DNA from: Mobula hypostoma
Lineage: Eukaryota
Assembly: GCF_963921235.1 (NCBI RefSeq)
Contig: NC_086108.1
Location: 75,456,001 to 75,520,000, forward strand
Direction of reading: 5' to 3'
DNA: 64,000 bases
This document shows, piece after piece, positions 2,170 to 56,535 of this stretch. A program made the position numbers and the translations under genes. The notes beneath the pieces are model-generated. The model was not told the DNA's origin, made no database searches, and saw nothing but the letters and a program-made list of their open reading frames with translations. How positions within the stretch are numbered: position 1 is the stretch's first letter; each line of letters starts with the position of its first letter.

Positions 2170-3983
2170 CTAAATTAGAGCTAATTTAGTTCCCTTAGTG
2201 GATTTTATGAAGCAATTATTTTCTAGATGGAATCCACTTACACTTTCGTTAGTCGGTCAATTTCATACAGTTAAAATGATGATTTTACCAAAATTTTTAT
2301 ACGTATTTCAAAATATTCCTACTTTTTTAACTTAGAAGTTTTTTGATCAGGTTGATTCTATTATTTCATCTTTTGTTTGGAATAATAAAAGACCAAGAAT
2401 TGGAAAATATCATTTACAAAAATTAAAAAAGGATGGAGGTCTTGTTCTGCCTAATTTAAGAATGTATTATTGGGCAGTTAATATATGTTATGCATGTTCT
2501 TGGTTATATTGGATTGATAAAAATGAACAACCACCATGGGTTGATCTGGAATTGAAAGCTGTGAAACAACTTTACAAGTTTATTATTAGGAGTCTCTTTA
2601 CCTGTACAACTAGCCAAAATTTCTATTCTAAATTTATATCCTATGATTAAGCAGTCATTATGAATTTGGTATCAGTTTCATAATTTTTTTAATCTTAAAA
2701 AATTTAACCTTCTTAGTTTAATTTATAGAAACTATTTATTTAAACCTTCACTTAGTGATCCTACCTTTTCTCTTTGGAGAAATAAAGGAATTTATTCCTT
2801 TATGGATCTGTTTCAAGAAGGCCGGTTGATGTCCTTTGAGAAGTTAGTAACTAAATATTCGCTCTCATACTCACACTTCTTGCAAAATCTTCAGGTCAGA
2901 CATTTCTTACAATATTTAAGTAATTTTCCATATATACAAGATTTTGACCTGTTAGACATTATTTTAAAAATGAATCCTTTAGTGAAATGTTCCATTGGGA
3001 AAATTTATAATTTACTATTACAACAGGATAATTATCCTTTACTTAAGATTAAGCAAGATTGGGAAAGAGAGCTTAACATGACCTTGATAACAGAGGATTG
3101 GTTGCGAATTTTGAAGTTAGTTAACTCTTCTTCGATTTGTGCCAGTCACTCTCTAATTCAATTTAAAATTGTACATCATTTTTATTTGACAAAGGAGAGA
3201 CGGTCTAAAATATTTCCTAATGTTAATAGTCAGTGTGATAGATGTAAAACTGAGACAGCTATATTGACACATATGGTTTGACCATGCTCTGTATTGAAAC
3301 AGTTTTGGAAACCTATTTTTTCTACAATTTCTAAAGCTTTAAAAATTAATTTACAACCTAATAAATTGACAGTTTTGTTTGGTATAATCCCTCAATATAT
3401 TCACAGTATTTCTATATCAGACCAACATGTAATTGCATTTGTAACATGATTGGCCAGAAGGGCTATTTTATTAAAATGGAAAGATGCTTCTGCTCCCACT
3501 TTGATACAATGGTTCTCTCAGGTAATGTTATGTCTTAGTTTGGAGAAAATCAGAAGTCGAAGTTTTGATCCTGGATTTGACTTTGAGAAAAGGTGGGACT
3601 CTTTTGCCCACTACTATCATTTGATTTGAATTAATTAAGATAGTCCCCTTCTGATTCTTGGGTAAATGGATTTGTTTGGCGGATTGATGTTTTTCTTTTA
3701 TGGAAGCTTGTATGGCGTATAGCTCCAGGTTTGTGCTCCAAATGGGTTTTTTCCAGTTTTTATTTGTTAGTAGGGTTTTTTTTTTGTTTTAGTTAGTAGG
3801 GGTTCTTTTTTCCTTCTTTCTTTTTTCCAAAAAAAAAGCTTTAGCATTTTGTTTTTTCTTATTATTATTGATATATTGTTTAGCTTGGTTGATAGTTTAG
3901 CTCTTATTGTTCATATTGATATGTTCACTTGATTACGTTAATGTATTTTTTGTTGTTGATTTTCAATAATAATTAAAAAAAGA
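2170..3983 (+). mobile_element. 5'-truncated L1-clade LINE (ORF2 C-terminus with stops and frameshifts, T-rich 3' UTR, A tail)
   Basis: Translations RWNPLTLSL..KMMILPKFLYVFQNIP and KKDGGLVLPNLRMYYWA, plus CCHC knuckle CDRC..(T)HMV*PC. Stop near 3629, A-rich tail to about 3981, degenerate flanking direct repeat. Confidence 0.9.
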
Positions 3984-5130
3984 GAATTGACTGAAAAAAA
4001 CCCTCATTCAACTAGATAAGCGGTAGGGAATCCAATTAAGAACACCATCTTCAGTAGTTCCATGAACTGAAATTTCTTATCGGTGTGCAGTTGTTCCAGA
4101 TGATCAAGATGTACAATCAGATCATCATCTTGCAATTCTATTTTAAGAGTGGCCAGTGAAGGAAATTGAATAAACTTGCAAAGTCCAAAAGTGTTGCTGA
4201 AAAGTGTGAGTTTTCCAAGGAAAGAGGTAATAGTGTCTTCCCATGGTATGAGATCAATGACAGAAAGCCTTCCAAGAGGGAGAATCCTTGCAATGTGACA
4301 AGCCCCAATGATGTACCCGGTAGGGCTCTGCAAACCTGTGCTAACCAAATGGCAGGTTGTTCAAAGACAAGTTCAGACTCTCTTTGCTACGGTCGAAAGT
4401 TTCTACCTGCTTCAAAAGGGCAACAAATCATACCAGTGCCCAAGAAGAACAGGATGAGCTGCCTTAACAACAATTGTCCAATAGCACTCACATCTGGAGT
4501 GACGAAGTTCTTTGAGAGGTTGGTTATAGCTAGAATCATTTCCTGCCTAAGCAAGGACCTGGATCCACTGCAATTTGTCTATTGCCACAATAGGTCTACA
4601 GCAGATGCAATGTCTTTGATTCTTCATGCAGCCTCAGATCACCTGGACAATATTAATACTTATATCAGGCTGCTATTTATTGACTACAGCTCAGCATTTA
4701 ACACAATCATTTCCACAGTTCTGATCAAAAAAAACTCCAAAACCTAGGCCTCTGCACCTCCCTCTTTGTAAACTTTCTCACCAGAAGACCACAGTCTGTG
4801 CGGATCAGAAATAACATCTCCACTCATTGATAATCAACACTGACATACGTCAAGGATGTGTGATTAGCCCACTGCTCTACCCTCTCTACACCTATGACTG
4901 TGATGCTAGGCACAGCTCACATTGTCATCTATAAATTTGCTGATGACACAACTATTGTTGGCAGAATTTCAGATGGTGAGCAGAAGACCAGCAAGACCAA
5001 AAAACCGTGGACTTCAGAAAGGGTAAGATGAGGGAACACAAACCAGTCCTCATAGAGGGATCAGAAGTGGAAAGGATGAACAATTTCAAGTCCCTGGGTG
5101 TCAACATCTCTGAGGATCTATCCTGGGTCC

Positions 5131-5381
5131 AGAGTTAAAAATACACGGACTAAGATGTTAACTGTCCTGTGCTATCACTAGTGGGATCATCAGTTGATCT
5201 GCCACCTGTCTTCAGGAGTTTCGGCCCGCTTATGATCAAGACTCCCTCGAGATGGTGGGCCAGCAGTGTTAAAGCACCACCTCCCACTGGTGAGCTTAAA
5301 AACTTGGCATCTGCCTCTATCAGTCACTTCCATCCACAGACAGTCTGCTCTTCAGGTGTCTCTGCAACTACTGAAGAGTCT
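5131..5381 (-). mobile_element. 3' end of a HERO-like RLE-clade retrotransposon inserted into the Rex1 copy
   Basis: Interrupts contiguous Rex1 sequence (tcctgggtcc|...|atgcagttacaaagaagg). Degenerate AE.AE.S..LWM ORF terminus, and a 3' UTR organised like that of the RLE-encoding fragment at 43110-43597. Confidence 0.6.
5180..5246 (-). ncRNA. Candidate permuted (pseudoknotted) hammerhead ribozyme
   Basis: RNA GGAGU-C-UUGAUC-AUA-AGCGGG-CC-GAA-ACUCC-(15 nt)-GAUCAA-CUGAUGA-U-CCCACU. Perfect stems I and III, intact CUGAUGA, GAAA and GUC, imperfect stem II. Confidence 0.55.
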
Positions 5382-6581
5382 ATGCAGTTACAAAGAAGGA
5401 ACATCAAGAGCTATATTTCATTTGGAGTTTGAGGAGATTTGGTATGTCACCAAAGACACTCGCAAATTTCTACAGATGTACTATGGAGAGCATTCTAACT
5501 GCCTGCATTACTGTCTGCTATGGCGGGGGGGGCACTACACAGGATCAAAATAAGCTGTAGAAATTTGTGATCTCACTCTGCTCCATCATGTGCACTAGCC
5601 TCCCCAGTATCCAGGACATGTTCAAGGAGTGTTACCTCAAAAAGGTGGCATCCATCATTAAGGACCCATAGGACATGCCATGTTCTCATTGCTATCATCA
5701 GGAAGGAGGTACAGAAGCCTGAAGGCACACACTCAATGATTCAGGAACAGCCTCTTCCCCTCTGTCATCAGATTTCTGAATGGACAGTGAACCCATGAGC
5801 ACTACCTCACCACTTTTGTTTTGCACTTCTCATTTAATTTAACTTTTTAAAGATATATATACTTCTTATTGTAATTTATAGTTTTTATTATTACGGACTG
5901 CAATGTACTGCTGCCGTATAACAACAAATTTCATGACAAATGCCAGAGATACTAAAACTGATCGTGATCTGATTGCAGCTTTTTCCTTGTTACTGTTGGT
6001 TTAATAAATTCCGTTTTTCAAATGTATATGACAGGTAAAATATGTTCAAGTTAGCAGTGACAGTTTATTCTCCATGCTGTGTTTCACTTAGAAAAGCAAA
6101 TGGAACTCCTTTTCAAAATAGGATCAGTAACAGGGATTGAATGGAAGTTGTAGTGGTAGGTGGAGATGCAAGTGGTAGATTGCACACGTCCTCACCTTGC
6201 AGCAGTTTTGCCACCTCTGGCAGAGGACCCGGCTGCAGTAACTGCAGCCCGTACGGCACGTTTTATAAGTATTATAACATGCATGGGTCAGTGGAAGGCA
6301 AATAGGACCAGCCTCCTGCTGCATACCCGCTGATTGGCCCCATCCAATCAGCAGTTTGTGATTTGCGGGTGGATGTGGAGCGCGTGTGCAGGAATCTTCC
6401 AATGAGGATGACTATCCAATCATACGTGAAGAAATTGAAGCCGCACTACGGTCACTGAAGTGCGGGAAGTCAGTAGGAGTTGACAACATCCCTGCTGAAC
6501 TGCTGAAGCATGGAGGAGAGGCCACGATGGTCATGCTTACCACCATCTGCAATAAGATTTGGCAGACAGGTGAATGGCCGA

Positions 6582-7534: not shown

Positions 7535-8219
7535 CATAGTCATAGTCATAGTCATATTTTAATGATCCCGGGAGAAATTGGTTTTCGTTACAGCTGCACC
7601 ATAAGTAATTAAATAGTAATAAAACCATAAATAGTTAAACTGTAATATGTAAATTATGCCAGTAAATTATGAAATAAATCCAGGACCAGCCTGTTGGCTC
7701 AGGGTGTCTGACCCTCCAAGGGAGGAGTTGTAAAGTTTGATGGCCACAGGCAGGAATGACTTCCTATGACGCTCTGTGTTGCATCTTGGTGGAATGAGTC
7801 TCTGGCTGAATGTACTCCTGTGCCCACCCAGTACATTATGTAGTGGATGGGAGACATTGGCCAAGATGGCATGCAACTTGGGCAGCATCCTCTTTTCAGA
7901 CACCACCGTGAGAGAGTCCAGTTCCATCCCCACAACATCACTGGCCTTACGAATGAGTTTGTTGATTCTGTTGGTGTCTGCTACCCTCAGCCTGCTGCCC
8001 CAGCACACAACAGCAAACATGATCGCACTGGCCACCACAGACTCGTAGAACATCCTCAGCATTGTCCGGCAGATGTTAAAGGACCTCAGTCTCCTCAAGA
8101 AATAGAGACGGCTCTGACCCTTCTTGTAGACAGCCTCAGTGTTCTTTGGCCAGTCCAGTTTATTGTCAATTCGTATCCCCAGGTATCTGTAATCCTCCAC
8201 CATGTCCACACCGACCACA
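7535..8219 (-). mobile_element. Young Rex1-like LINE 3' fragment inserted in the RTE
   Basis: Open frame YRYLG...RLYFLRRLRSF...SFLPVAIKLYN with (TGACTA)n tail. Short TSD GTAT. Near-identical to about 31385-32055. Confidence 0.92.
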
Positions 8220-10134
8220 GTATGTAAGGTAATGCTCAGAATCATCTTGAACAGACTGAGACCTCGGGCAGAAGACATCATTGCTGAGGAACAAGCAGGC
8301 TTCCGTAAGGGCAGATGCACCACTGAGCAGATTTTCAACCTCCGCACCCTCTGTGAGAAACACCTTCAGCACCAGAGAGAGTTCTACCACGTCATCATAG
8401 ACTTCAAGAAGGCGTTTGACAGAGTCTGGCATGATGCCTTATGGGCCACCATGAAGAAATTCAGCATGGGGCAGAAACAGATTCATACAATCCATCAGCT
8501 TTATGCCAAGGCAACCAGTGCAGTACTCGCTCAGGGCACCATTGGGGAGTGGTTCCATACCTCTGTAGGAGTCCGTCAGGGCTGCCTCCTCTCCCCCACT
8601 CTCTTCAACGTCTTCCTGGAATGAATCATGAGTGCTGACCTTGAAGATCATATAGGCACAGTCAGCACAAACCTAAGGGAAGAACATCACAAACCTAAGA
8701 TTTGCTGATGACCTTGATGGACTTACAGGAAAAGAGGATGAACTGGCCAACCTGGTTAGCCACCTTGACAGAGCCTTCACAAAGTTTGGAATGGAAATAA
8801 GTGCCGAGAAAACCAAACTCATGGCAAATGCCAATGGTGCCATCACAACAGACATCTCAGTCCATGGTCAGAAACTTGAGACAGTGCAGCAGTTCAAATA
8901 ACTGGGGGCAATCATCAGTGATGAAGGATCAAGGACAGAAGTCCTGGCAAGAACTGCACAGACAATGACTGCACTCTCCAAACTCAACACAACATGGAGG
9001 GACAGCAACATTACCACGAAGTACAAGACCAGACTCCTGCGTGCGTTGGTATTCTCCATCTTCCTGTACGCATGTGAGACATGGACCCTCACAGCAGAGC
9101 TACACAGGAAGATGCAGGTATTGGAAATGAGATGCTATCGCAACATCTTGGGCATCTCATACTTGGACCACATCACAAACGAGCAGGTCCGCAAGACCAT
9201 CCAGCACCACATTGGCCACCATGAAGACCTTCTCACAATGGTGAAGAAAAGAAAGCTGAGATGGTACAGCCACGTAACAAGATCCAGTGACCTTGCAAAG
9301 ACTGTTCTACAAGGAACTGTGGAGGGGAAAAGAAGGCGAGGTAGACAGAGGAAAAGATGGACGGACAACATTAAAGAATGGACAGGGATAACATTTGTGG
9401 TGACCCAGGCTCTGGCACACAACCGCGACAGATGGAACAGACTGGTGCAAAGCTTTTCGTGATGGTGCCCCGACAACTCCACCAGGAGTTAAGGGCACAA
9501 GGCAAGGCAAGTGGAGCGGGTCTCAGCAGGCCGCCCTGCAGTGTGTTAACAGTCATTTGTGCCTGGTTAGGCAAGTGCAGATTGATGTGCGGCACCTTCT
9601 CCCCACCACCACCGTCACACCGGCCCTGACACACACAAGCTAAGCTATTTTGCTCCCTCATTTGCATCAGTGCAGGAAATAATCCTTGTTCACTGTGTAA
9701 GGTTTTCCCTGAGTTAGAAAGAATGACTATAGCTCAAGATACCACTGATTCTTTTGACATACCTCAGACCCCTCATGACTGAGGTTTGTGACATTGTTTG
9801 GGCATACTCTCAACATGTAAGGGAAGAAACTAAACAGAAAGTACTGCAAGTCCTCAGCAGGTTAGCCGCATCTGTGGCATGAAACGGGTGAAAAAGATCT
9901 CATTAAACTGAAATAATTTAGATCAATTACCTTATTTTTTAATCAAAAAAGATCATTAAATCTAAAATATTCCCTTTACTTCTTTCTCCACAAATGCTGC
10001 AAAAATCTGCTGCATTTTTAGTCTTAATTTCAAATTTCCAAAATAAGCAGCTTTTTGCTTTTCTACATGGCAAGAAATTGGTAAAGGTTCATATGATGGC
10101 AGAACATGCTCTGACAATTGTGGCCAGTCGTGGC

Positions 10135-29249: not shown

Positions 29250-32200
29250 TTAATGATATGAAGAAGACGATGCCAGCAAACAACACCTCCACAGACAGCG
29301 TCCTCATGATGGTCCACAAAACTGCTTCCTTCACTTCCTTTATGTCTTCTTTTTGTTTCAGATGTGGTACTTTTGGGGTCTTTGATCTACAGTTTGGTGG
29401 TGTGTTTTCACAACATCAGCCTGGTTTGATTGAGTGATCTAGCGCTTTGCTGTCTCCAAGAGGGTTGCGAGAGGCGAGCAGCCTCTTTGAGTCCAAGAAG
29501 CTTGGAGAAGGGGCTCGCGCCCGTGATCGACTCCATTTCTCACCGATCTCACTGATTAATGTGCTGAGGAAGATTGAAAACATCGAGGTGAGTGTGGAAG
29601 GTGAGCGTGGAAGGTGAGCAGATTTAAATTCAAGCTTACCACTCAATTATTTGGGGACCATTCATTGCTCCTACCATGGTTGCCATGGCTAGAACACTGC
29701 CCAACTTCACGCAGTATGTGAGCTGTACAACCAGAGGGGAGAGGACTCTGGATTTGATGTACGCTAACGTTAAGGATGCATACAGCTCCTCTCCCCTCCC
29801 CCCACTGGGAAGGTCAGATCATAACCTGGTGCATCTAAAACCCTGCTACGTGCCCCTGGTGAAGAGTAAACCAGCAACCTCGAGGACAGTGAGAAAATGG
29901 TCAGAGGAGGCTTATGAGGCGCTCCAGGGTTGTTTTGAGGTGACAGATTGGCAGGCACTCTGTGAGCCACATGGAGAGGATATTGATGGGCTCACAGAGT
30001 GCATCACTGATTACATTAACATCTGTGTGGACTGCAATGTTCCAACAAGAACTGTCCTTTGTTATTCAAATAACAAGCCATGGGTGACAAAGGACATTAA
30101 GGACATCCTGAACGCTAAAAAGAGGGCGTTTAGAGATGGAAATAGAGAGGAGCTGAGGGCAATACAGAGGGACCTGAAAGACAGGATCAGGGAGGCTAAA
30201 GACAGGTACAGGAGGAAGCTTGAGTGGAAACTCCAGCAGAACAACAAGAGGGAGGTCTGGAGGGGGATGAGGACCATCACTGGGTTCCAGCAAACTAGCA
30301 ACAGAGGAGCTGAAGGCAGTGTGGACAGGGCCAATTTATTTAACCTGTTCTTTAACAGATTTGACATTGTAGCCCCTGCCCATCCCCCACATTAGCCATC
30401 TGTTGTCAGCCCCCAACCAACACATATTCCACTCTCCCTTCCTACCCCTCCTCACAGTCCCCCATCCTGCTCTCATGACTATACCCCTTCCCCACACGAA
30501 ACCACCACGGTGGGCTTCACAGCTGAACAGGTGAGAAGACAGCTGAAACGTCTCAACCCAAGCAAGGCTGCAGGACCGGATGGTGTCAGTACCAGGGTGC
30601 TCAAAGCCTGTGCCCCTCAGCTATGTGGAGTACTTCGCCATGTATTCAACATGAGCCTGAGTCTCCGGAGGGTTCCTGTACTGTGGAAGACGTCCTGCCT
30701 CGTCCCTGTGCCAAAGACGCCGCACCCCAGCGGCCTCAATGACTACAGACCAGTGGCATTGACCTCCCACATCATGAAGACCCTGGAGAGGCTTGTTCTG
30801 GAGCTGCTCTGGCCTATGGTTAGGCCACACTTAGATCCCCTCCAGTTCGCCTACCAGCTCCGACTAGGAGTTGAGGATGCCATCGTCTACCTGCTGAACT
30901 GTGTCTACACCCACCTGGACAAGCCAGCGAGCACTGTGAGGGTCATGTTTTTTGACTTCTCCAGTGCGTTCAACACCATCTGCCCTGCTCTGCTGGGGGA
31001 GAAGCTGACAGCGATGCAGGTGGATGCTTCCCTGGTGTCATGGATTCTTGATTACCTGACTGGCAGACCACAGTACGTGTGCTTGCAACATTGTGTGTCC
31101 GACAGAGTGATCAGCAGCACTGAGGCTCCACAGGGGACTGTCTTGTCTCCCTTTCTCTTCACCATTTACACCTCGGACTTCAACTACTGCACAGAGTCTA
31201 GTCACCTTCAGAAGTTTTCGGAGCAAGGGAGATGAGGCTGAGTGCAGGGCTATGGTAGGAAACTTTGTCACATGGTGTGAGCAGAATTATCTGCAGCTTA
31301 GTGTGAAAAAGACTAAGGAGCTGGTGGTAGACCTGAGGAGAGCTAAGGTACCGGTGACCCCTGTTTCCATCCAGGGGCTCAGTGTGGACATGGTGGACAT
31401 GGTACAAATACCTAGGGATATGAATTGACAATAAACTGGACTGGTCAAAGAACCCTGAGACTGTCTACAAGAAGGGACAGAGCCGTCTCTATTTCCTGAG
31501 GAGACTGAAGTCCTTTAACATCTGCCGGACGATGCTGAGGATGTTCTACGGGTCTGTGGTGGCCAGTGCGATCATGTTTGCTGTTGTATGCTGGGGCAGC
31601 AGGCTGAGGGTAGCAGACACCAACAGAATCAACAAACTCATTCGTAAGGCCAGTGATGTTGTGGGGATGGAACTGGACTCTCTGACGGTGGTATCTGAAA
31701 AGAGGATGCTGTCCAAGTTGCATGCCATCTTGGTCAATGTCTCCCATCCACTACATAATGTACTGGGTGGGCACAGGAGTACATTCAGCCAGAGACTCAT
31801 TCCACCGAGATGCAGCACAGAGCGTCATAGGAAGTCATTCCTGCCTGTGGCCGTCAAACTTTACAACTCCTCCCTTGGAGGGTCAGACACCCTGAGCCAA
31901 TAGGCTGGTCCTGGACTTATTTCATAATTTACTGGCATAATTTACATATTACTATTTAACTATTTATGGTTCTATTACTATTTATTATTTATGGTACAAC
32001 TGTAATGAAAACCAATTTCCCCTGGGATCAATAAAGTATGACTATGACTATGACTAAGTTTTCAGCGCCACCTGCCAGCCTCTCACCCGTTGCTGCCGGA
32101 AAAGGAGTCTTTCCCTTCCCCTCTTGCTTGCTGATCCTGAAGGACGGTCGCTGCATTCCAATAATCTTTCTCTCCCTCGATGCTGTTGGAGGATGGTGCC

Positions 32201-49462: not shown

Positions 49463-50570
49463 ACTTCCCACAAGGTGAAACCTCGTGTCATGAATGACTG
49501 AGATGCTTCACTCCCAGATGAGCAGAATACATTTTATGCAAGCTTTGAAAGGGAACCTGTGTGAATCCTTGCAGCATCTGCTGACCCTGCAATCTCTGTC
49601 CTGGAGGCCAATGTCAGAACATCTTTCATGAGAGTGAAGGCATCAGGCTCTGATGGCGTACCCGGAGGGCACTGAAAACCTATGCCAACCAACTGTTGCG
49701 GATGTTCTAGGACGTCTTCAATCCCTCACTGCTGCATTCAGAAATTCCCACCTGCTTCAAAAGGGCAACAATCGTACCAGTGCCCAAGAAGAACAGAATG
49801 AGCTGCCTCAGTGACTAACGCCCAGTTGCGCTCACATCTACAGTGATGAAATACTTTGAGAGGTTGGTCATGGCCAGAATCAATTCCTGCCTAAGCAAGG
49901 ACCTGGACCCGCTGCAACTTGCCTATCGCCACAACAGGTCTACAGCGGATACAATCTCATTGGCTTTCCACTCGGCCTTGGATCACTTGGACAACAGCAA
50001 AACCTATGTCAGGCTGCTGTTTATTGATTACAGCTCACCATTCAACCATTATACCCTCAGTACTAATAAACAAACTCCAAAACCTGGGCCTCTGTACTTC
50101 CCTCTGCAACAGGACCTTGACTTCCCCATTGGGAAACCGCAGTCAGTGCAGATCAGAAGTGACATCTTCTGCTCATTGACAATCAACAATGGCACACCTC
50201 AAGCCCACTGTTCTACCCTCCCACCACCCACTACTATATGGCTAGACACTGCTCAAAAACCATCTGTTAGTTTGCCAATGACACAACTATTGTTGGCAAA
50301 ATTTCAGATGGTGATGAGGAGGCATATAGAAGTGAGATAGATGAATTGGTTGAGTGGTGCCAAAACAACAACCTTGTACCCAACATCAGAAAGACCAAGG
50401 AAATGATTGTAGACTTCAGGAAGGGGAAGTCGAAGGACTACACACCAGTCCTCATTAAGGGATCAGCAGTGGAAAGTGTGAGCAGTTTCAAGTTCCATCT
50501 CTGAAGGTTTATCCTGAACCCAACATATTAATGTAATTGCAAAGAAGGCCCAACAGCGGCTATATTTCAT

Positions 50571-52672: not shown

Positions 52673-54324
52673 TAACAACAGGAATTCTGCAGATGCTGGA
52701 AGTTCAAGCAACACACATCAAAGTTGCTGGTGAACGCAGTAGGCCAGGCAGCATCTCTAGGAAGAGGTACAGTCGATGTTTCAGGCCGAGACCCTTCGTC
52801 AGGACTAACCGAAGGAAGAGTGAGTAAGAGATTTGAAAGTTGGAGGGGGAGGGGGAGATCCAAAATGATAGGAGAAGACAGGAGGGGGAGGGATGGAGCC
52901 AAGAGCTGGACAGGTGATTGGCAAAGGGGATACGAGAGGATCATGGGACAGGAGGTCTGGGAAGAAAGACAAGTGGGGGGGGAACCCAGAGGATGGGCAA
53001 GGGGTATATTCAGAGGGACAGAGGCAGAAAAAGGAGAGTGAGAGAAAGAAGATGTGTATAAAAATAAACAACAGATGGGGTGCGAGGGGGAGGTGGGGCA
53101 TTAGCGGAAGTTAGAGAACTCGATGTTCATGCCATCAGGTTGGAGGCTACCCAGACGGAATATAAGGTGTTGTTCCTCCAACCTGACTGTGGCTTCATCT
53201 TTACAGTAGAGGAGGCCATGGTCAGACATGTCAGAATGGGAATGGGATGTGGAATTAAAATGTGTGGCCACTGGGAGATCCTGCTTTCTCTGGCGGACAG
53301 AGCGTAGGTGTTCAGCAAAGCAGTCTCCCAGTCTGCGTCAGGTCTCGCCAATATATAAAAGGCCACATCGGGAGCACCAGATGCAGTGTATCACCCCAGT
53401 CGACTCACAGGTGAAGTGTCGCCTCACCTGGAAGGACTGTTTGGGGCCCTGAATGGTGGTAAGGGAGGAAGTGTAAGGGCATGTGTAGCACTTGTTCCGC
53501 TTACACGGATAAGTGCCAGGAGGGAGATCAGTGGGGAGGGATGGGGGGGACGAATGGACAAGGGAGTCGCGTAGGGAGCAATCCCTACGGAAAGCGGGGG
53601 GGGGAGGGAAAGATGTGCTTAGTAGTGGGATCCCGTTGGAGGTGGCGGAAGTTACGGAGAATAATATGTTGGACCGGAGGCTGGTGGGGTGGTAGGTGAG
53701 GACCAGGGGAACCCTATTCCTAGTGGGGTGGCGGGAGGATGGAGTGAGAGCAGATGTACGTGAAATGGGGGAGATGCGTTTAAGAACAGAGTTGATAGTG
53801 GAGGAAGGGAAGCCCCTTTCTTTAAAAAAGGAGGACATCTCCCTCGTCCTAGAATGAAAAGCCTCATCCTGAGAGTAGATGCGGCGGAGACGGAGGAATT
53901 GCGAGAAGGGGATGGCATTTTTGCAAGAGACAGGGTGAGAAGAGGAATAGTCCAGATAGCTGTGAGAGTCAGTTGGCTTATAGTAGACATCAGTGGATAA
54001 GCTGTCTCCAGAGACAGAGACAGAAAGATCTAGAAAGGGGAGGGAGGTGTCGGAAATGGACCAGGTAAATTTGAGGGCAGGGTGAAAGTTGGAGGCAAAG
54101 TTAATAAAGTCAACGAGCTCTGCATGCGTGCAGGAAGCAGCGCCAATGCAGTCATCGATGTAGCAAAGGAAAAGTGGGGGACAGATACTAGAATAGGCAT
54201 GGAACATAGATTGTTCCACAAAGCCAACAAAAAGGCAGGCATAGCTAGGACCCATACGGGTGCCCACAGCTACACCTTTAGTTTGGAGGAAGTGGGAGGA
54301 GCCAAAGGAGAAATTATTAAGAGA
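52673..54324 (-). mobile_element. 5'-truncated Penelope-like element (RT C-terminal half, GIY-YIG, UTR, hammerhead)
   Basis: QTKGVAVGTRMGPSYACLF, YIDD, LPFLDL, YYKPTDSHSYL and CSRCGLLYIGET. Premature TGA at 53338-53340, true stop at 53101. Hammerhead at 52771-52806. Confidence 0.95.
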
Positions 54325-56535
54325 TTCTTTTCTTTGGCTGTAGTTTCCAGCCATGTGTTATGCACAGGAAGCTCATAAGTGTACCGACAGTGTATGGCGT
54401 TAAGACTTCTGGAAAATGCTGGTCTTAAAATATTCCATCATCTAAGTGGCAACCATGCATCTATGACTATCAGGTAAGTGTAAAATCATGAGAGAGACTT
54501 TGTAATTGCAGGCTTTTCATTATTGGTACCTATTGAAGGATCAAAATCATGCTCATGAGCCCATTGCCTTGCATTTCTGACCACTATATATTCCCCACTA
54601 AAACCAAGTGATAAACAAAGACACATGTTCTGGATCCTGACCAAATAACACATAAGCATCAGGCTGTAGGTATGCTGCAGTGCCAACTTTGCTAGTTTCT
54701 AACAAATGTTTTGAGTGCATTTGTATGAAAAACACATACTTTCTCTCACGAGAAATGCAAATTGCATTCAAAAATGCTCTTACTTAAATTGAAGAAAACA
54801 AGTTGTAACACATGTATGGTTCTTCAGAACTGAAAGCTGAGCTTAAAAATCACCCAGGGATTTGGTTGTTTCATAGCCAGAGCTGATGCACTGTTACTGA
54901 TAATGATCAGCTTCCTGTTGCTAGGTATCAGAATTTCCTCTCCACTTATTCCAGGTAGAATTTAAGTGACTAAAAGCATCGGAGTTGGGATGCAACAACC
55001 TATTGGGATGAGGAAACTGGATCAGGATTATGAGTCGATATACTTCATGGAACACAACATTAAAGACAGAAGTAGCAAGAATGTTGTCTTCAAACAAATA
55101 TATCACTCTAAGAGATTAGAAAGAAGTCTTTGAGGCACAGGGTCATACAGCAGAGAAACAGGCAGATCATGCCATGGCCATGCCATTTCATGTTTATTCA
55201 TCCCACTTATCAGCATTTAGTCCATAGTCTTCTATTGTGATAGATATTCACTGTCCAGGGCCAGGTAGCCTTTCCTTTTGTCAAACTCAGCTTTCTAAAC
55301 ACAGTAGGTGACACTTCTACTCTCACAACTGAGTAAGATGAACTTCCAACCAATATTCTTTGTTTAGCTTCTTGTCATGAATGGAAGCCTGTCTTGAGTT
55401 CTTATTGTAAATGGCAAGCAATAATCAGTCTGAAGCTAAAAGGACAGCTTTGCAAACAAACAATAGTCTATAGAACATGGGATGTTGGCTCATGGCATCT
55501 GGGTTGACTGTTCAAGAGATACTGTGTAAGACAATGGTGTTGTGTTAATCGGCCTGTTTCAAACCAGACAATACTGACTAAGGTATTTAGCATGAGGAAA
55601 CTTGCAGACCAGATTAATACTATCACTTAGCACATCAAATAGCTGAATCTGTTAATAGTTGGAAGGTTTGTAAGTTCAAAGATTCAGCTTTACAGCATTA
55701 ATTATGGGGAAGCTTTTAGATCATTTGTGTTAAAAGGTTTTGAAAAAATATCACATGCATATGAGTGAAGTCACCCAAGTGGCAGAAAAAGTGTATGAAA
55801 GTAAGAGAGCAGTCAGGTTAGGAAAGTTAAGGAACAGCAAGAAGAATGACAGAAAGACTGGACGACTAGAATCCATCCCACTGACTTCGATTTCTATGAA
55901 GGACGATTCATTCATCTGCAATTCGTTGATATATCTTTTTAGCTTATAGGAATCTATCTGTGTTTTGGAAATCCTTTGTGTTTTAGAAGTTGTTTGTATT
56001 ATGGAAATGTTTTATAAGATAGAAATCCTTTGTGAGTTTTAGATGTGTTTTAGGACTTTGTAAATGTGTATCACTAAATATAAATGAACTGTTTTGCCAG
56101 CTGGAAGTGTCTCCTCCTTGGTAGGGAGGGGGGACCCACCACTTAAATAGCAGGTATTGGCAACTTAACTGTAATCTGTATAAGGTCCATGACCTCGCTG
56201 CTGCTTTGCCCACTTCAGAGACTCTGTATCCATCTTCTGAGTAATTACAGATGCAAAAAATCCATTTAATAACTCCCCCATCTCCTTTGGCTCCATGCAC
56301 AGATGACCATTCTGATCTTCCAGAGGACAAATTTTGTCTCTTGCAATCCTTTTCCTCTTAACATATCTGTAGAAGCCCTTAGGATTCTCCTTCACCTTAT
56401 CTGCTAGAGCAATCTCATGTCTTCTTTTAGCCCTCCTGGATTATTTCTTAAGTGTTCTTTTGCATTTCCTACACTCCATAAGGACCTTATTTGTTCCTAC
56501 CTGCCTATAGCTGCTACGCAGCTCCTTTGTTTCTT

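Follow-up and report, generated by a model that had tools for sequence, protein, structure and literature searches.

A candidate hammerhead ribozyme with a split core in the 3′ UTR of a HERO retrotransposon

The locus and its parent element

The window analysed here is a 64,000-nucleotide stretch of the Mobula hypostoma genome (contig NC_086108.1, forward-strand positions 75,456,001 to 75,520,000). Its minus strand holds, at 5131..5379, a 5′-truncated copy of a HERO-clade non-LTR retrotransposon, recognized by homology to other copies. The fragment is roughly 249 nt long and consists of 3′ UTR only; homology with the other copies begins at query base 32 (window position 5379) and reaches their common 3′ end. 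The last part, 5131..5176 on the minus strand, is the 3′ terminus of the element, read here as a fixed start of reverse transcription, and full-length copies run on from it into the 5′ start of the element. The fragment sits among decayed pieces of several other LINE families, identified by eye at 2336-3281, 4160-4747, 7667-9462, 29628-31235 and 49819-50340. Also by eye, a 339-aa open frame at 53338-54357 (minus strand) resembles a Penelope-type reverse transcriptase (RT) and the start of a GIY-YIG nuclease.

The parent element is 3.85 kb long, and its long copies carry a single broken ORF. A domain search of this ORF returned RVT_1 (7.7e-20) and zf-RVT (2.8e-05, below its cut-off), and by eye it contains an N-terminal zinc finger and a restriction-like endonuclease with a PD..E motif, next to a CCHC knuckle. 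Homologues of the protein are found in amphioxus (65%) and in lamprey, teleost and scallop (40-46%). When we compared the RT by eye with a published alignment (PMC7650587), it shared motifs along its whole length with HERO-1_BF and HEROTn, unlike the R4, Utopia and R5 rows. HERO-1_BF and HEROTn also resemble the element in their single ORF (zinc finger, RT, CCHC, restriction-like nuclease), colinear RT and dispersed insertion (PMC7650587). Penelope-like hallmarks, namely a GIY-YIG nuclease and a telomerase-like RT, are absent from the element, and no relatives were found in viral contigs. Fell et al. are said to have surveyed Hero elements in 2025.

Searching the 3.48-Gb genome for copies, we obtained 1631 candidates and scored 40 of these; 30 copies were fetched. 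Exact matches to one 25-mer number 1057, and genome-wide figures of this kind come from counting patterns and sampling copies. All 30 fetched copies vary at their 5′ ends and share one 3′ end, which lies some 110 nt downstream from the cleavage site predicted below. Their 3′ flanks are unrelated, save for a tandem junction and one duplicated pair, which points to dispersed insertion and matches the description of the HERO clade as mostly not site-specific. No clear target-site duplications were seen, and in a crude test 43 of 48 loci lacked a 5-nt match. The description of the host sequence as a HERO-like 3′ UTR is confirmed.

Some of the copies differ from the rest. Four (L040, L061, L042 and L184) are internally deleted or rearranged, and three of these break near unit position 761-765, possibly marking a non-autonomous derivative or a recurrent template switch. 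Two full-length copies on different contigs, L034 and L174, have 400 nt of 5′ flank that are 95.5% alike and 3′ flanks that differ; 5′ transduction, a shared target repeat or recombination are possible origins.

A knotted hammerhead fold in the 3′ UTR

On the minus strand of the window copy, three hammerhead core segments follow one another in the order cleavage strand, GAAA strand, CUGAUGA strand. The 5′ strand of stem III (5241..5245, ending in U16.1) pairs with 5219-5215, with 89.0% of alignment cells paired, and is followed by the GUC triplet with C17 at 5240. By analogy with other hammerheads, cleavage is predicted after C17, at 5239..5240. The 5′ strand of stem I (5234..5239) pairs with 5199-5194 at six of six positions, with 79.9% of cells paired and two-sided changes in all 6 pairs. 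The second segment (5215..5227) comprises the 3′ strand of stem II (5227-5223, with C11.1 at 5223), G12-A13-A14 (5222-5220) and the 3′ strand of stem III (5219-5215, with A15.1 at 5219). The third (5187..5199) joins the 3′ strand of stem I (5199-5194) to the CUGAUGA core (5193-5187). Both of these segments are defined by the alignment and by the partner swaps described below.

A sequence-only reading of this DNA had proposed a pseudoknotted, non-circularly ordered hammerhead core at 5180..5246, with all core residues in register with stems I and III, and relatives of the element bear this out. A metagenome scan identified 80 loci at 30-52% protein identity, and 10 with less than 120 nt after the ORF were dropped. 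Of the remaining 70 3′ UTRs, 51 have the core in this order and at least 4 bp in each of stems I and III, compared to 0/70 antisense sequences, 0/70 coding sequences and 0-1/70 in each of 10 shuffles. These 51 UTRs collapse to 40 distinct motifs. In a quick tree the motif is found on the majority of the main branches, and it persists at protein identities as low as 31-33%. The 19 UTRs without a match include two with the core elsewhere in the contig (L111 and L143), two that are truncated and four that resemble decayed copies, one of which (L113) has G at N17; in the other 11 of the 70, no trace of the core was found. A single pattern match in the window, against 0/100 shuffles, was not used as evidence, since the pattern had been fitted to the window sequence.

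Rfam had no match in the window at gathering score and none in 5100-5400 at E<=10. On 20 loci without the core it found nothing, and at E<=5 nine of these loci gave three weak, unrelated matches. Twister-like pieces at L128:4020-4110 and pistol-like pieces at L092:3880-3960, picked out by eye, gained no support from Rfam and were rejected.

The positions around the predicted cut follow the pattern of a self-cleaving RNA. CUGANGA and GAAA served as search anchors, and the register and the N-U-H triplet were examined without constraint. In this unconstrained register 39 of 39 motifs have U-H, in agreement with the cut that had been predicted at 5240/5239, and N17 is C in 17, A in 12, U in 10 and G in none. 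N7 varies freely (U 25, A 9, C 4, G 2), and the 16.2-15.2 pair is G-C in 38 and A-U in 2 of 40. The N17 tally obeys the hammerhead cleavage rule and is the best sign of cutting. We consider it quite probable that the motif cleaves itself.

The complete fold is larger than the motif at 5180..5246, whose letters are as read; it spans 5291-5177 on the minus strand and begins 45 nt further upstream. We assessed the additional helices by partner swaps, in which strands were exchanged between 39 motifs (38 relatives and the window) in 2000 permutations, and with a sequence-only alignment of 33 sequences, namely the window and 32 of the 51 hits, hand-chosen to leave out duplicates and truncated or odd-length sequences. 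The whole fold is closed by P0, whose 5′ strand (5282..5291) pairs with 5186-5177; this 3′ strand (5177..5186) lies directly past A9 and has one broken pair in the window copy. P0 scores 320 in the swaps (179.9 +/- 9.9 in permutations, 0/2000), with 75% of cells paired and two-sided changes in 9/9 pairs. The 5′ strand of stem II (5257..5261), which begins with G10.1 at 5261, pairs with 5227-5223 and scores 190 (120.9 +/- 5.9, 0/2000) with 89.6% of cells paired. G10.1-C11.1 begins this upstream stem II in 34/38 motifs, and position 10.1-11.1 is G-C or G-U in 32/33 aligned sequences. Between P0 and stem II, flush with both, the hairpin P0a (5262..5281) completes a four-way junction between A9 and G10.1; a flush P0a of at least 4 bp, with no unpaired base, is found in 20 of the 26 motifs that have P0 of at least 6 and stem II of at least 4. 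A further helix, PK, joins 5251..5255 to 5206-5202 (3′ strand 5202..5206) and scores 244 (155.7 +/- 6.5, 0/2000), with 94.2% paired.

Over the 33-sequence alignment, 80% of cells in the fold are paired, and its covariation is 0.568, compared to 0.190 when shuffled and 0.10-0.15 when slid. P0, stem II and PK were not required by the scan. Stems I and III, for which covariation across HERO 3′ UTRs had been anticipated, do covary, with figures that are partly circular because the scan required both stems. When 5150-5290 is folded as a lone sequence, by a method that cannot model knots, the result has z = -0.95 and contains no hammerhead; the minimum-energy fold retains P0, P0a and stem II and loses stems I and III, whose pseudoknots lie outside the model. 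The window copy is altered in P0, P0a and PK. Relative to an intact copy, the stability of its nested part is lower by 12 kcal/mol, so the window copy may itself be impaired. Taken together, the data leave us highly confident that a knotted fold is conserved here, and covariation supports a mutual pseudoknot of stems I, II, III and a fifth helix in the aligned sequences. P0 would stack on P0a, and stem II on the A9-G12 pair.

Two features of the relatives concern the same helices. In 21 of 37 motifs (relatives L068-L144), the tip of P0a holds a self-complementary hexamer, compared to about 5 expected: TGATCA in 14, TGGCCA in 4 and three single others. These palindromic tips suggest kissing-loop pairing of two ribozyme copies; the hexamer is common to the relatives by descent and is missing from the window's family. 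Three loci of a family near the window's in the tree (L077, L093 and L112) have the core, and in them the upstream stem II and P0 were not found, so this family may use another wiring.

A more compact structure and a chance arrangement have to be weighed against this fold. The sequence-only reading had built stem II from the strand after CUGAUGA, pairing 5230-5225 with 5185-5180, and had the cut process the 3′ end of the element. As a hammerhead of type SGC (Eckert et al. 2023, PMC10085705) confined to 5246-5180, such a molecule would match that type in strand order and size, as far as the available text of that paper describes it, and its stem II scores slightly above the swap controls (143 vs 133.9 +/- 4.9, reached by 80/2000). 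However, this stem II is paired in just 51.4% of cells over the 33 sequences and lacks G10.1-C11.1, and its duplex is worth -4.5 kcal/mol, compared to -17.9 for P0 and -9.2 for the upstream stem II in an intact copy. Both of its strands are better paired elsewhere, 5227-5223 with 5261-5257 and 5186-5177 with 5291-5282. With the upstream stem II, G10.1-C11.1 is restored, so the U/CC internal loop that had been thought to replace it disappears, and the 3-nt joint read between stems I and II becomes a linker of 6 nt. Trimming of the 3′ end fares no better, as all 30 copies end about 110 nt past the predicted cut. By pattern, no copies ending at the cut and none starting there were found, with patterns for starts and ends exactly at the cut that detect only about 24% and 42% of such ends; we rejected the cut as the maker of the 3′ end. 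We consider the compact hammerhead very unlikely. That the arrangement arose by chance within a decayed repeat would suit the state of the window copy, a dead fragment with three changes within helices, and the lack of an Rfam match, but the count of 51/70 against 0-1/70 in controls and the covariation across all six helices refute this for the fold, and we give it practically no weight.

The split core and known hammerheads

The fold differs from other hammerheads at one point of the core. A9 leads directly into P0, and G10.1 comes from about 70 nt upstream. The core is split at this position because stem II is made by an upstream strand and the strand after CUGAUGA pairs in P0. Helix II is nevertheless closed by G10.1-C11.1 beside G12, as in hammerheads generally, by way of the upstream strand, but A9 is not joined to 10.1 directly or through 1-2 inserted bases. 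Covariation supports a core that, in the modelled fold, is split between A9 and G10.1 by the four-way junction of P0, P0a, stem II and the core itself.

Natural one-base insertions between A9 and 10.1 are reported to be active. In the available parts of Eckert et al. 2023 (PMC10085705), all alignments join A9 to 10.1 with at most 1-2 inserted bases, and the descriptor tolerates one extra base there and demands a G after CUGAUGA(U). The same text divides the hammerhead into blocks S, G and C, assumed to be uninterruptible, and reports type SGC as validated and as found only in metatranscriptomes. The S-G-C order, which the sequence-only reading had taken to be undescribed, is that of type SGC. 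HRIMA-1 and its variants share this order with the HERO motif and, in the parts available, are also alike in having pseudoknotted stems, stems I and II joined by a short linker, one extra helix and a complete core (PMC10085705); PK may be analogous to their stem I-II interaction helix. They differ in that their block C (stem I, CUGANGA and the 5′ strand of stem II) is described as continuous, whereas the HERO motif has the 5′ strand of stem II upstream of block S and runs from A9 into P0. Lacking the required G, the motif would be missed by the descriptor as given in that text. The fold is not type SGC and lies outside the six permutations set out there. Type SGC was not found outside Eckert et al. 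2023 in the literature searched.

The PK hammerhead of Zhan et al. 2024 (PMC11300833), which in the available text cites hammerhead variants reported by Weinberg et al. 2015, is another relative in form. According to that text it likewise has an extra helix, a pseudoknotted stem II region, the A9-G12 pair and G10.1-C11.1, but it holds A9 and G10.1 in one short stem-loop with no four-way junction, and it is not in a retrotransposon as the HERO motif is. A hammerhead that stays active with its core interrupted at A9/G10.1 was not found in the literature searched. We conclude that the motif is a new wiring of a known ribozyme; it belongs neither to type SGC nor to the Penelope group.

Terminal repeats and a model of replication

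Full-length copies carry a partial tandem repeat. A 5′ marker of the element is present in 91 copies. Among the first 30 of these, 29 show a 3′ end of the element itself fused in front at one junction, at a single position and, by eye, with no added bases. The same junction occurs in metagenome loci, nine times downstream of the motif or ORF and three times upstream of the ORF. We compiled the lengths of these front repeats for 66 5′ ends, taken from 60 5′-marker loci and five long copies and leaving out the internally deleted L040 and L061. At least 5 nt of repeat is present at 60/66 of these full-length 5′ ends; 41 stop by 97 nt, none fall at 98-161 nt, and 25 run from 162 to at least 1000 nt and so pass the predicted cut, 162 nt being about the whole fold. 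The length recorded for L168, 216, is an underestimate, as inspection of its junctions gave about 830. A front repeat at one fixed junction is therefore a feature of full-length copies.

Directly past the junction, the 5′ UTR has short hairpins in tandem, three to five in number, whose loops are alike and resemble GAAAGAC. They are conserved across distant families (L053:1501-1600, also L070, L074, L076, L085, L086, L088 and L137) and are a candidate protein-binding, priming or translation signal.

The repeat lengths bear on whether RNA is cut in vivo. When only repeats that reach 50 nt are counted, 15/40 stop before 111 nt, compared to 2/30 first-round copies (Fisher p = 0.004). Such an excess would be expected if some templates start at the cut, which hints at cutting in vivo; it could alternatively reflect a harder second pass. 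Front repeats of exactly 111 nt number 0/66. The gap at 98-161 nt is unlikely at neighbouring second-round rates, which predict 7.8 to 15.7 ends there, but the first-round rate gives it p = 0.06, and it does not locate the cut.

Comparing the two ends of each copy indicates that they have a common source. The rear end was found at 44 of the 54 loci with a front repeat of at least 20 nt. Across these 44, front and rear repeats share 38 minor alleles, compared to 13.6 +/- 3.6 by chance (0/5000), and their divergence is 0.052, compared to 0.060 for random pairs (2/5000). Many of the shared alleles lie at mutation-prone CpG sites, but the two repeats of L154, L159 and L179 also have transversions in common upstream of the cut. 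Because minor alleles are shared, we conclude that some step copies one stretch of RNA twice, on a circle or by a jump back onto the same molecule. At no fewer than 5 loci (L034, L168, L174, L175 and L153), front and rear ends are of different subtypes.

From these observations we infer the following cycle. When transcription reads through a copy with a long enough front repeat (at least 163 nt), the RNA would carry two ribozymes, and cutting at both would free a unit-length RNA permuted at the cut. This monomer could be closed covalently, by the ribozyme or a host ligase, or be held shut by its helices. The element protein would start cDNA synthesis inside the RNA, at a fixed position some 110 nt downstream from the cut, as the junction and the shared alleles suggest. 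Synthesis would pass the rejoined site and, on going past one full round, rebuild the front repeat from the same template in a second round. Templates would also come from transcripts cut at the front ribozyme alone, and these would yield front repeats of up to 111 nt. Our best model, held at about even confidence, is that the ribozyme frees a unit-length RNA, which is then closed and copied by the RT for more than one round.

Several observations count against a circle. The evidence for RNA consists of assembled contigs of uncertain status, and ends do not pile up at the cut. The discordant loci also weigh against it, because a single circle needs later recombination to give them. In the available text of Frangieh et al. 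2024 (PMC11167929), mutating the ribozyme of an anole Penelope element left in vitro insertion unaffected and read ends at the cut were not found, which by analogy is a warning for ribozyme-dependent replication. As to the contigs, the element stretch is present in 24 sequencing runs, always as contigs, with one on record as RNA. Summed contig depth over L053:1390-1472, the predicted 3′ product, is far higher in runs X1 and X5 and not in X9. This peak was not counted, as depths of this kind are unsuited to ranking parts and a single host gene with high expression could explain it. Genomic copy number across the same regions differs little (1057 vs 886).

Two other mechanisms would dispense with the circle. 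An active ribozyme could act on linear templates, the front copy cutting to set the RNA 5′ end, the rear copy kept uncut by protein, and the repeat renewed when the RT jumps off the RNA's 5′ end onto a 3′ end. The excess of front repeats below 111 nt together with the 98-161 gap speaks for this, some discordant pairs suit jumps between molecules, and the available part of a review (PMC6765202) has the HDV-like ribozyme of R2 defining a 5′ end and lists R2 template jumping by title among its references. But alleles shared upstream of the cut require the same molecule, and 25/66 front repeats exceed 111 nt. RT template jumps usually leave ragged joints, whereas the element has one clean junction position in 29/30 copies. 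We regard linear templates as rather unlikely. The hammerhead shape might instead be a non-catalytic docking site that positions the element protein for internal priming on uncut tandem transcripts. It is true that every copy extends through the site with no pile-up of ends, and the Penelope protein uses unprocessed RNA in vitro according to the available text of PMC11167929. Yet avoidance of G at N17 in 39/39 motifs, with C, A and U used freely, is not what one expects of a binding site, uncut linear templates would erode the front repeat in each generation, and the shared alleles would go unexplained. P0 does clash with a stem II of type SGC, but pairing stem II with the upstream strand resolves the clash. 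Docking of this kind is, in our judgement, improbable.

The closed unit-length template favored here has parallels in other elements. As described in the available parts of PMC11167929 and PMC6765202, Penelope-like elements with pseudo-LTR hammerheads show the same partial tandem layout, a terminal direct repeat holding a hammerhead, and an internal start of reverse transcription. They have a telomerase-like RT, a GIY-YIG nuclease and minimal type I hammerheads, whereas the HERO element combines an R2-like RT, a restriction-like nuclease and a large knotted hammerhead. Retrozymes, in the available text of bioRxiv 10.64898/2026.07.22.740005, are also units between two hammerheads that are thought to be circularized and reverse-transcribed, but they are non-coding and non-autonomous and use type I or III hammerheads. 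R2, L1Tc and RTE are likewise non-LTR elements freed from a co-transcript by a self-cleaving RNA; in the available part of PMC6765202, theirs is of another class (HDV-like), present as a single copy at the 5′ end, and no terminal repeat is described. Neither a HERO ribozyme nor a HERO terminal repeat was found in the literature searched, a scope outside which subscription papers, Repbase and Dfam lie. We conclude that this R2-like clade carries a Penelope-like repeat and that the element works in the manner of a pseudo-LTR hammerhead system.

The full proposal is that the ancient HERO clade, autonomous and R2-like, replicates through ribozyme-made circular RNA, with an active split-core hammerhead of a seventh wiring and rolling reverse transcription that renews the terminal repeat with no true 5′ end. 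We advance it tentatively, at somewhat less than even confidence. If active, the split core would break the rule of an uninterruptible CUGANGA block stated in the available text of PMC10085705, and non-circularly wired hammerheads would move from metatranscriptome RNAs into animal genomes, at more than 1000 copies. The proposal also offers an answer to how LINEs of a clade that lacks a fixed target site gain and keep their 5′ end. If the circle proves true, an R2-type RT with internal priming and copying past one round would be relevant to RNA-templated gene insertion.
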